From positions 1 through 33,237 of the forward strand of contig DATLEB010000214.1 of NCBI GenBank assembly GCA_035525615.1: a stretch of 33,237 bases of DNA, written 5' to 3'. Each line of letters begins with the position of its first letter. Positions within the stretch are counted from its first letter, which is position 1. The notes under the pieces are model-generated. The model was not told where the DNA came from. It made no database searches and saw only the letters and a program-made list of their open reading frames with translations. Origin of the DNA: Kofleriaceae bacterium (lineage in GTDB: Bacteria; Myxococcota_A; Polyangia; Haliangiales; Haliangiaceae). Below are positions 1,743-3,431 of this stretch, piece by piece. The position numbers and the translations under genes are program-made.

Positions 1743-1896
1743 GTCTCCACGTGGGGACGCACGATGCGCACGTCCCACGCGTGACCCGTGCACACAACAG
1801 TCGCCGCCCGTCATCGCCGCACGTCATCGGCGCTTCTCGTGCACGCACGGTCAGAGTGACGTCGCGTGGGTTCGCGTGGAGTCTCCACGTGGAGAC
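1743..1896. repeat. Two intergenic copies of the 16-bp palindrome GTCTCCACGTGGAGAC, at 1743-1758 (one mismatch) and 1881-1896 (perfect)
   Basis: The exact palindrome has a CACGTG core. The same element recurs twice inside the downstream HNH gene. Nearby short direct repeats include CAAGTCGTGCGTGG (twice, at 1686-1699 and 1703-1716) and TCGCGTGG (twice). Confidence 0.7.
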
Positions 1897-2189
1897 GCGC
1901 GCGGCCGCCGCCGAGACACGTCGTTGCTCGCGATGGCTCGAGCGCGGGCGATTTCGAGCGCGATGAATCAACTTGTCGTTGACAGAGTTTCGGCGCGCGT
2001 CGGGTGGCGTTCGGACAAACGCGTCGCGATCACTCGTCAGGCGCGCGGTGCTTCGCGTGGCGCGCATTTCTTCGTTCTCGACGAGGATTCGAGATCGAAG
2101 GGCCTCCTCGTCGCGCCACGGGCAAACCAGGGGCCGAAAAAATCGTGTGGTAGAGGTGTTCTCGCGCGTGAGTGCGCGAGGAGGGTGTG

Positions 2190-3431
2190 ATGTTCGAAGG
2201 CGCGACGACGGTGGTGGCGGAGGCGATTGAGTTCACGGCGGCGGCGGCGGCGGCGGCGGTGGTGGAGACGAGCGCGGAACTCGTCATCACGGACTGGCGA
2301 GAGATCGACCAGCGGTTGCGTCGGGTCGCGAGCGCGCAGGCGGCGCTTGAAGCGGAGGAGCTGCGATGGCTCGCGGTGGCGCAGGAGATCGAGCTGCATC
2401 GCCAGCTGGGGATGGCGAGCATGCTGGAGTACGTCGAGCGGGTGCTCGGGCACGGGCCGAAGGCAGCGCACGAGCGTCTGCGTGTGGCGCGCGAGCTGAA
2501 GGAGCTCCCGCTGACGCGAGCGGCGCTCGAGCAGGGGCGGCTGTCGTTCAGCGCGGTTCGCGAGCTGAGCCGGAAGGTCACGGCGAAGACGGAGGGCGAG
2601 TGGCTCGAGCTCGTTCGCGGGAAGTGCCTGCGCGAGATCGAGGACCTGCTGTCGGGTCACCGAAAGGGCGATCGGCCGGCCGATCCAATCGATCCGGATC
2701 TACGGCTGAGGAAGATCACGCTCGAGCTCACGCCGCCGACCATGGCGCTGTTCCGCGAGGCGTGCCGGCGCCTGGAAGAGGAAATGGGTCACCACCTGAC
2801 CGACGACGAGACCATGGCCGCGATGTGCGCGACGGTCCTCGGCGGAGCGACTCCACGTGGAGACTGCGACGTCGCCGAGTCTCCACGTGGGGACGCATCA
2901 CCGATCGACGCATCACCGATCGACGCATCACCGATCGACGGCTCGCGAGACCAGGCATCGCGGAACGCTACGTCCCGCAATCCCGCGCCGCGTGTCGCGC
3001 CGTACCAGATCGCGCTCACGGTCTGCCCGAGCTGCGAGCTCGGATGGCACGACGCGGGCGGCCGCGCGATCGCGGTGCCTGACTCCACGATCGCACAGGC
3101 CATCTGCGACGCGCAGTACCTCGGCACCACCGACCTGATCATCCCGGCGCGCACGTATCAGGAGGTCTCGCCCGCGACCGCCCGCCTGGTGCTGCGGCGC
3201 GACCGTGGATGCTGCCGCGTGCCCGGCTGCCGCTCGGCGCGCTGGCTCCAGCTGCACCACATCATCTGGCGCGAGCACGGCGGCTCCAACGATCCGCGCA
3301 ACCTGCTCTGCCTCTGCTTCGCGCATCACCAGGCCGTGCATCAGAGCAAGATCGGGCTCACCGGCGAGGCGCCCGACCGGCTCGCCTTCGACCTGAGCGC
3401 CTACCTGCCCGTCGGGCCGCCAGCCGCATGA
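2190..3431 (+). CDS. DUF222 (13E12-repeat-type) N-terminal domain with a C-terminal HNH endonuclease domain
   Basis: The C-terminus reads CCRVPGC...HHIIWREHGGSNDPRNLLCLCFAHHQAVH, the HNH Cys/His motif, and the helical N-terminal half is typical of DUF222-HNH proteins. The ATG at 2190 is preceded by GAGGAGGG 5 nt upstream. The track ORF starts at a GTG at 2172. The inter-domain linker contains repeat insertions. Confidence 0.8.
   Translation: MFEGATTVVAEAIEFTAAAAAAAVVETSAELVITDWREIDQRLRRVASAQAALEAEELRWLAVAQEIELHRQLGMASMLEYVERVLGHGPKAAHERLRVARELKELPLTRAALEQGRLSFSAVRELSRKVTAKTEGEWLELVRGKCLREIEDLLSGHRKGDRPADPIDPDLRLRKITLELTPPTMALFREACRRLEEEMGHHLTDDETMAAMCATVLGGATPRGDCDVAESPRGDASPIDASPIDASPIDGSRDQASRNATSRNPAPRVAPYQIALTVCPSCELGWHDAGGRAIAVPDSTIAQAICDAQYLGTTDLIIPARTYQEVSPATARLVLRRDRGCCRVPGCRSARWLQLHHIIWREHGGSNDPRNLLCLCFAHHQAVHQSKIGLTGEAPDRLAFDLSAYLPVGPPAA
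2849..2939 (+). repeat. In-frame repeat block inside the HNH gene linker: two further copies of the GTCTCCACGTGGAGAC palindrome (2849-2864 and 2879-2894), then three copies of the 15-mer GCATCACCGATCGAC (2895-2939)
   Basis: Read directly from the sequence. The block translates as ...PRGDCDVAESPRGD(ASPID)x3. Confidence 0.75.

Follow-up and report, generated by a model that had tools for sequence, protein, structure and literature searches.

Several described systems bring together short palindromic DNA sites and a dedicated protein. In Myxococcus xanthus, 22 parS sites of the consensus TGTTCCACGTGGAACG are arrayed within 3 kb (PMC3899335), and a ParB-family helix-turn-helix is also found in the KorB-OB system of IncP plasmids and in ParB-like regulators such as those of Noc-NBS, VirB-virS and BisD. 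In repetitive extragenic palindromic (REP) sequences, bacterial interspersed mosaic elements (BIME) and REPtrons, short palindromes occur together with a nuclease-type gene, the RAYT (HUH/Y1 transposase), and in Mycobacterium tuberculosis the REP13E12 elements associate the DUF222 and HNH architecture with multiple paralogues per genome. Here we compare these systems with a locus from a Kofleriaceae bacterium, in which four copies of the 16-bp palindrome GTCTCCACGTGGAGAC lie upstream of and inside a DUF222-HNH nuclease gene. The locus is carried by a complete contig of 33,237 nt, hereafter the window, and positions are given in window coordinates. We propose, with a probability of about 0.5, that the 16-mers are cis-acting parS-like sites of the DUF222-HNH locus, bound by the ParB-type domain of the nuclease itself.

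With ParB-parS, the window sites share the 16-bp palindromic format, the CACGTG core and the disposition in arrays. Their inner 10 bp, TCCACGTGGA, are identical to those of the M. xanthus parS consensus and equal to those of Pseudomonas aeruginosa parS, TGTTCCACGTGGAACA. However, the outer 3 bp on each side differ: relative to the full parS consensus TGTTNCACGTGNAACA, which includes the outer TGT/ACA, 6 of the 16 positions are changed, and a search of the whole window for the canonical TGTTCCACGTGGAACA with up to three mismatches returned no match. The sites also lie at a nuclease gene instead of beside parAB or oriC, some of them within coding sequence, and neither parA nor parB was found among the genes examined in this 33-kb contig. 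The candidate binder has a predicted ParB-type helix-turn-helix domain, but an HNH domain takes the place of the CTPase and C-terminal dimerisation domains that ParB possesses. The same predicted helix-turn-helix is shared with the KorB-type systems, whose CTPase clamp domain is missing from the HNH protein, and autoregulation is here proposed by analogy. We know of no KorB system with arrays within the gene that it regulates. The combination of a palindromic site and a ParB-family reader is a type already known, whereas arrays of binding sites within the coding sequence of their own reader would be the unusual feature of this locus. CACGTG or parS-like arrays are not described for REP13E12 in the literature found, and a full-text search yielded neither a description of these motifs nor a link between DUF222 and ParB. 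A 2025 survey describes fusions of HNH domains with the ParB CTPase fold, which is a different domain (PMC12704722).

The existence of the motif in the window is well established. Allowing up to three mismatches to GTCTCCACGTGGAGAC, exactly four matches were obtained, each with 0-1 mismatch (Table 1), and the other 31 kb contain no further copy. Across 100 shuffled windows, 0.35 matches were obtained on average and never more than two. A preliminary description of this DNA, which had placed the four copies and judged them far beyond chance, was therefore accurate on both counts; the neighbouring 15-nt tandem repeat (ASPID) that it mentioned is real, and the in-frame copies in the linker bear out its view that the palindrome is tolerated in coding DNA. 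The shared repeat is longer than 16 nt and reaches ~19-20 nt (A-GTCTCCACGTGGRGAC-GC), copy 3 being oriented opposite to the other copies as judged by the flanks. Copies 1 and 2 are located in a 658-nt intergenic stretch devoid of coding signature. Within the HNH gene, copies 3 and 4 are read in frame (residues ~220-235) and constitute two units of one 30-nt minisatellite, continuing as the 15-nt repeat detected by Tandem Repeats Finder.

The association of the motif with this gene extends to the family. We sampled 22 loci from Myxococcales and Kofleriaceae metagenome-assembled genomes (MAGs), 12 metagenomic loci (mostly redundant) and six contigs of close homologues (70-75% identity), and counted the motif CCACGTGG in 36 non-redundant loci amounting to 474 kb. 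Its density reaches 0.81 per kb in the 1.2 kb 5' of the HNH gene and 0.98 per kb within the gene, compared with 0.14 per kb downstream and 0.051 per kb in the remaining locus. This corresponds to a ~16-19-fold enrichment 5' of and inside the gene over the flanks (Poisson P ~1e-59, for loci that are not independent). At least one copy occurs at the gene in 28 of the 36 loci, and the 355 kb of flanks contain 18 matches, 10 of which come from one contig. The motif thus marks the DUF222-HNH gene family and not the genome at large. Clustering at DUF222-HNH paralogues, which the preliminary description had suggested checking, is indeed present, and its comparison with mycobacterial REP13E12 holds for the multiple paralogues, which number seven loci in HK-STAS-MYXO-12, six in RYN_366 and four in SMAG_U13657, and probably also for the domain architecture. 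It had hesitated between the site of a dimeric factor and a dispersed REP-like repeat: a DNA-level element, probably the site of a dimeric protein, stands, and a genome-dispersed REP-like family is rejected for the window lineage because of the low flank density and the absence of copies in the 31 kb outside the locus. Seven single 16-mer matches in viral contigs have no HNH homologue nearby and are regarded as chance matches.

The conservation is at the level of DNA and not of peptide. In seven HNH genes, 22 of the 39 Pro-Arg pairs are encoded by CCA-CGT; in the neighbouring window genes CCA makes up 1 of 69 Pro codons and CGT 2 of 109 Arg codons. A different frame, C-CAC-GTG-G (His-Val), is used in more distant paralogues (40-50% identity), where the motif forms tandem repeats with an 18-nt period (HVGHAA) after the HNH domain and ahead of a C-terminal RuvA_C-like domain, and is also present inside the HNH motif itself (AVHVG). 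The N-terminal tail encoded at one of these loci (L037, 9575-9990) consists of eight perfect tandem 57-nt units, (GDAVGSVAHVGRDAAAAGG)x8, translated in frame as 19 aa x8, and every unit contains TGGCCCACGTGGGCCG. In a set of 120 homologues, 124 occurrences of HVG compare with an expectation of 10.8, and PR[GE] or HVG is present in 106 of them. The use of one DNA word in two reading frames, along with the non-coding copies, excludes a purely peptide-level explanation.

All close homologues with enough sequence have upstream copies, one to four in number, and all have copies in the linker. The latter number 2-6 per gene in tandem units of 24, 27 or 30 nt (SPRGD, SPRED, SPRGE), and the syntenic orthologue L047 has six in-gene copies versus two in the window. 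In-frame PRG/PRE copies are found at the equal linker position in homologues down to ~55% identity and the in-gene copies evolve as locus-specific tandem minisatellites, two observations that contradict the former idea of a spreading element recently inserted in the gene. A locus-specific variant is often common to the upstream and in-gene copies. Strict palindromy is dispensable, as L046 shows with seven copies of the asymmetric variant TTCCCCACGTGAAGAC, of which three are upstream and three in the gene. In L031, GTCTCCACGTGGAGAC coexists with a doubly changed, still perfect palindrome, GTCTTCACGTGAAGAC (GTCTT/AAGAC arms), and many in-gene copies retain only one good half-site. The core CCACGTGG is constant and the arms vary by genome, mostly symmetrically: GTCTC-CACGTG-GAGAC in the window group, CGGCC-CACGTG-GGCCG in RYN_366, TGGCC/CGGTC variants in HK-STAS-MYXO-12 and L037, GTGCC-CACGTG-GGCAC in L011, and TGCCC-CACGTG-GGGCA in L008 and others. 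Such symmetrical changes fit a reader with two-fold symmetry.

The N-terminal domain of the HNH protein provides a candidate for this reader, since it is predicted to adopt the helix-turn-helix DNA-binding fold of the ParB family. In a Foldseek search with this domain of the AlphaFold2 model, Bacillus subtilis ParB, M. xanthus ParB and Noc rank directly after McrA, with alignments of ~100 columns at ~3 Å and a probability of 0.84-0.97 for seven of the eight chains. Likeness to the ParB-family DNA-binding domain was found by two structure-comparison methods, the best resemblance being to ParB/KorB/Spo0J/Noc. At the sequence level, Pfam HTH_ParB gives weak matches in 6 of 93 homologues (best E 0.002), and Pfam recognizes only DUF222 in the isolated window domain. 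A sequence profile of the domain retrieved no ParB from the PDB sequences, which points to a distant relationship. Within the ParB/Noc family, exchanging four interface residues is enough to change recognition from one palindrome to another that differs at two bases per half-site (PMC7383237), so that the retargeting of a ParB-type domain to a shifted palindrome is, by analogy, plausible.

A protein annotated in a Kofleriaceae MAG matches the window protein with 100% identity over 99% of the query, and the AlphaFold2 model of the window protein has an overall predicted local distance difference test score (pLDDT) of 85. Judging from the sequence, the window protein is probably an active nuclease, because the Cys/His zinc ligands and the His/Asn/His motif are invariant among homologues; PDB matches of the nuclease part are McrA, IscB and the group II intron maturase. 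Pfam HNH_2 scores above threshold (22.6 bits vs a cutoff of 21) and DUF222 just under it (23.5 vs 24.4), the latter being matched by 18 of the 93 homologues with a best E of 1.7e-8. PADLOC and NCBIfam showed similarity at the HNH level only and no specific defence system. Residues 221-270 are disordered in the model (pLDDT 53-60), and the G+C content at third codon positions of the linker falls from ~0.9 to 0.65 at the in-gene copies. No blastn alignment of the linker region to close homologues was obtained. The N-terminal tail represents a third hypervariable segment, with (CGG)8 encoding poly-Ala at 2236-2259 of the window and pentapeptide repeats (NGAVT or SGALT) in the homologues P0002, P0005 and P0008. 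Of the 93 homologues in alignment A2, 48 (e.g. P0010, P0016, P0018, P0021) have a C-terminal RuvA_C-like domain that is absent from the window protein. RuvA_C is domain III of RuvA, which contacts RuvB, and its presence hints at a link with Holliday-junction processing.

Upstream of the gene, a block of ~210 nt preceding the start codon is common to six loci (the window, L047, L031, L044, L046 and L030) and has a fixed spacing, with TTGAC at -208 to -216 and GTTCTCGACG at -113 to -121, both ahead of a strong Shine-Dalgarno sequence. The blastn similarity to close homologues begins at this block, which we infer to be a promoter, the promoter identity of TTGAC being putative. In five of the six loci, 2-4 CACGTG sites are situated 93-366 nt 5' of TTGAC. 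Tandem arrangements, repeating every 24 or 40-42 nt, are frequent, and the sites have no common reading frame (spacings of 40, 42, 32 and 47). In the array region, nothing besides the motif itself can be aligned between loci. Two invariant leader sequences, CGTCGCGATC and GTTCTCGACG, are partly complementary to one another. The covariation term of RNAalifold for the conserved leader is unfavourable (+0.73) and gives no evidence of a structured leader RNA; the leader may be a second DNA operator or promoter element.

Table 1. Positions of the palindrome copies and of the associated gene features in the window
Feature	Position	Strand	Description
Upstream copy 1	1743-1758		GTCTCCACGTGGGGAC, 1 mismatch to palindrome; non-coding; 231 nt 5' of conserved TTGAC
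Upstream copy 2	1879-1898 (perfect 16-mer 1881-1896)		20-nt near-palindrome GAGTCTCCACGTGGAGACGC; 93 nt 5' of TTGAC
Conserved leader block (putative promoter)	1965-2189	+	Six-locus alignment, 66% mean identity
TTGACA	1979-1984		Leader element
Invariant GTTCTCGACG	2074-2083		Leader element
Shine-Dalgarno sequence			GAGGAGGGTG, ahead of ATG 2190
DUF222-HNH nuclease gene	2190-3431	+	ATG 2190, 413 aa
N-terminal domain	2295-2654	+	Residues ~36-155; predicted all-helical, ParB/KorB-like helix-turn-helix fold
Hypervariable linker	2847-2999	+	Two 30-nt motif units, then 15-nt x3.3 repeat at 2892-2940
In-gene copy 3	2849-2864		GACTCCACGTGGAGAC, 1 mismatch; translates TPRGD (ATPRGD); disordered linker
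In-gene copy 4	2879-2894		GTCTCCACGTGGGGAC, 1 mismatch; translates SPRGD (ESPRGD); 30 nt from copy 3
Zinc-ribbon and HNH nuclease domain	3012-3389	+	Pfam HNH_2 and HNH

In the proposed mechanism, the N-terminal ParB/KorB-type helix-turn-helix would bind the CACGTG-core sites, with one half-site (GTCTCCAC) per monomer, and the binder would be the product of the same locus or of close paralogues. A small array lies 90-370 nt upstream of the promoter-like block and a second one in the gene, where the DNA of the disordered linker alone could accommodate sites. Once bound, the arrays would repress the nuclease, which is potentially toxic, or otherwise set its expression, in the way that KorB acts at its operators, and they may also mark the locus as the own substrate of the nuclease. 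Nicks or breaks at the arrays could lead to copy-number changes, to the homogenisation of upstream and in-gene copies and to the expansion of paralogues. Array expansion and contraction, homogenisation and paralogue expansion are all compatible with a nuclease acting at the sites, which is a fit and not a proof.

Several observations weigh against this proposal. The connection between protein and sites, from which we infer the identity of the binder and the effect of binding, rests on co-location and fold resemblance. Pfam finds no ParBc match and the N-terminal model is all-helical, with no beta-sheet domain; the ParB CTPase (clamp) domain is therefore absent, and the analogy with ParB and KorB is confined to the DNA-binding domain. 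Close homologues whose sites differ at one or two positions have almost the same recognition helix, and no convincing residue-to-base code linking this helix to the arm variants emerged, the lineages being confounded. All paralogues of one genome have the same site variant, which a single trans-acting factor per genome would explain equally well. Finally, 8 of the 36 loci are without CCACGTGG near the gene, and one contig (L023/L040) harbours 12 CCCCACGTGGGG-type copies over 21 kb, some of them inside the housekeeping genes for oxoprolinase and pseudouridine synthase.

The binding of the sites by another trans-acting factor is an unlikely alternative. This factor could be the chromosomal ParB, which would use them as parS-like sites of low affinity or secondary rank; it could also be a host regulator, for instance that of a DNA-damage regulon controlling all HNH paralogues. 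Both the site variant common to all paralogues of a genome and the core equal to parS speak in its favour. Mycobacterial 13E12 HNH genes have been reported in the LexA/DNA-damage regulon (PMC4181829), and a report on P. aeruginosa ParB describes its binding to many parS-related motifs (PMC5961200). However, the outer three bases on each side are unlike parS, the window has no match to TGTTCCACGTGGAACA with up to three mismatches, and the motif is confined to HNH loci and not found at other promoters in the 355 kb of flanks. An ordinary regulator would also leave the coding-sequence arrays in two frames unexplained, and the fast drift of the arms between lineages would be unusual for a conserved global regulator.

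We consider it rather improbable that the locus is a mobile or selfish HNH cassette, in which the motif would be recognised or cleaved at or near the cassette ends to allow transposition-like spread, homing or gene conversion among paralogues, in the manner of REPs around a RAYT gene. In RYN_366, four paralogue loci are flanked by a common unit of 160-230 nt, direct upstream and inverted downstream, with palindromes in or beside the units, and the contig with dispersed copies also keeps the idea of mobility alive. Recently expanded paralogues are 75-94% identical within a genome, indicating lineage-specific expansion; close homologues reside in unrelated gene neighbourhoods, and the HNH catalytic residues are intact. 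Conversely, the window lineage has neither downstream copies nor flanking inverted repeats, the gene ends 61 nt from a convergent gene, and the locus is syntenic with L047 on its downstream side. A target-site duplication was looked for and not seen, none being evident at the inverted-repeat cassette in L012, and we know of no HNH-based transposase. Compared with REP/BIME-REPtron systems, inverted flanking units occur in RYN_366 only, the motif is not genome-dispersed in most loci and the many dispersed intergenic copies are missing from the rest of the contig; the associated gene encodes DUF222-HNH and not RAYT, the conserved part of the palindrome is its centre rather than its stem, and copies reside in coding DNA. 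Unlike the situation at a homing endonuclease gene, intact sites are found both 5' of and inside the HNH gene, and no intron or intein context was seen. The cassette explanation partly overlaps our preferred one, as it involves the same protein and the same sites.

A role of the palindromes as DNA or mRNA hairpins, acting in termination, transcript stabilisation or slowed translation in a REP- or attenuator-like fashion, appears highly improbable. Copy 2 folds at -20.5 kcal/mol (z -3.6), a 27-bp mRNA hairpin is possible between copies 3 and 4 at -44.7 kcal/mol (z -6.3), and the equivalent arrangement in L031 reaches -42.5 kcal/mol (z -5.1). However, the asymmetric array of L046 has no excess structure (z +0.9), the loss of one half-site in many in-gene copies disagrees with a hairpin, T-run terminators do not accompany the copies, and no Rfam family matched the window or three related loci. 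Moreover, the invariant part is the loop-forming centre CACGTG and not the stem, the opposite of what a constraint on hairpins predicts. Barely credible, lastly, is a selection on the linker peptide (SPRGD/SPRED as a phosphorylation or protease site, for example) with upstream copies that are coincidental or decayed coding debris: SPRGD, SPRED and PRGAD do recur in homologue linkers and the window holds a Ser/Thr kinase gene, but this is largely refuted by the preference for the rare CCA-CGT codon pair, by the same DNA motif in a second frame (HVG) in paralogues and by frame-inconsistent upstream copies in DNA without coding signature.

Going further, and more tentatively than for the window locus itself, DUF222-HNH proteins, a large family to which mycobacterial 13E12 belongs, might be ParB-derived site-specific nucleases with parS-like sites in their own loci, even in the stretches that encode their disordered segments and there in two reading frames, possibly forming a self-recognising unit that regulates, diversifies and perhaps copies itself. 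If true, centromere-binding parts would here have given rise to a new class of element, selfish or autoregulated. The ParB-type fold and the candidate recognition sequence would offer a first clue to the role of DUF222, a domain of unknown function that is widespread (e.g. M. tuberculosis 13E12), and would illustrate the re-use of a centromere-binding module through fusion to a nuclease and retargeting to a shifted palindrome. They would also provide a natural case of a DNA signal kept inside protein-coding sequence by means of disordered linkers, in two reading frames among paralogues. A defined site of 16-20 bp makes concrete binding and cleavage experiments possible, in which the sites to set beside GAGTCTCCACGTGGAGACGC for comparison are TGTTCCACGTGGAACG (parS) and GGCCCACGTGGGCC. 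Practical use could also be made of a sequence-specific HNH nickase or nuclease whose ParB-like reader is programmable. The only plasmid-borne homologue found (28% identity), on the Rhodococcus erythropolis plasmid NZ_CP050126.1, belongs to the one actinobacterial locus examined; it has no CACGTG motif, on a plasmid without annotated ParB, and the findings are therefore not generalised to the actinobacterial family. At this locus (L048, 4045-4134), two copies of the near-palindrome ATTGGTCTAGTCCAAT are located just 3' of the stop codon, and an 18-nt tandem duplication is present at the 5' end.

Other features were noted in the related loci. In RYN_366 (L022, 8810-9600 and 11340-12400; also L012, L013 and L025), inverted arrays of a repeat unit of 160-380 nt enclose the HNH paralogues, a layout that resembles a cassette with terminal inverted repeats, and the unit carries a second palindrome, GATCAACC..GGTTGATC. 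In L023/L040 (1-17100), a 47-nt tandem array at the contig start is found among the CCCCACGTGGGG-type copies; almost no such palindromes occur in L015-L017, other contigs from the same MAG.

The surroundings of the HNH gene in the window include a convergent gene (3493-6159, minus strand) for a bacterial homologue, 888 aa long, of the eukaryotic major vault protein (MVP), with MVP shoulder and Vault_3 domains and 90.6% DNA identity in L047. Further along, a protein with VIT and VWA domains, which are found in vault PARP, is encoded at 23017-25788 (plus strand), and a fragment of an ADP-ribosylglycohydrolase at 12163-12726 (minus strand). Simple repeats border two of these genes: a perfect (GCTGCG)x7 occupies the spacer between the convergent HNH and MVP genes (3446-3487), and the VIT-VWA gene is preceded by (CCGAAA)x7 and a 9-nt x3.6 repeat (22932-23005) and followed by a TCCGGT/TTCTGG hexamer array of ~16 units (25986-26115).

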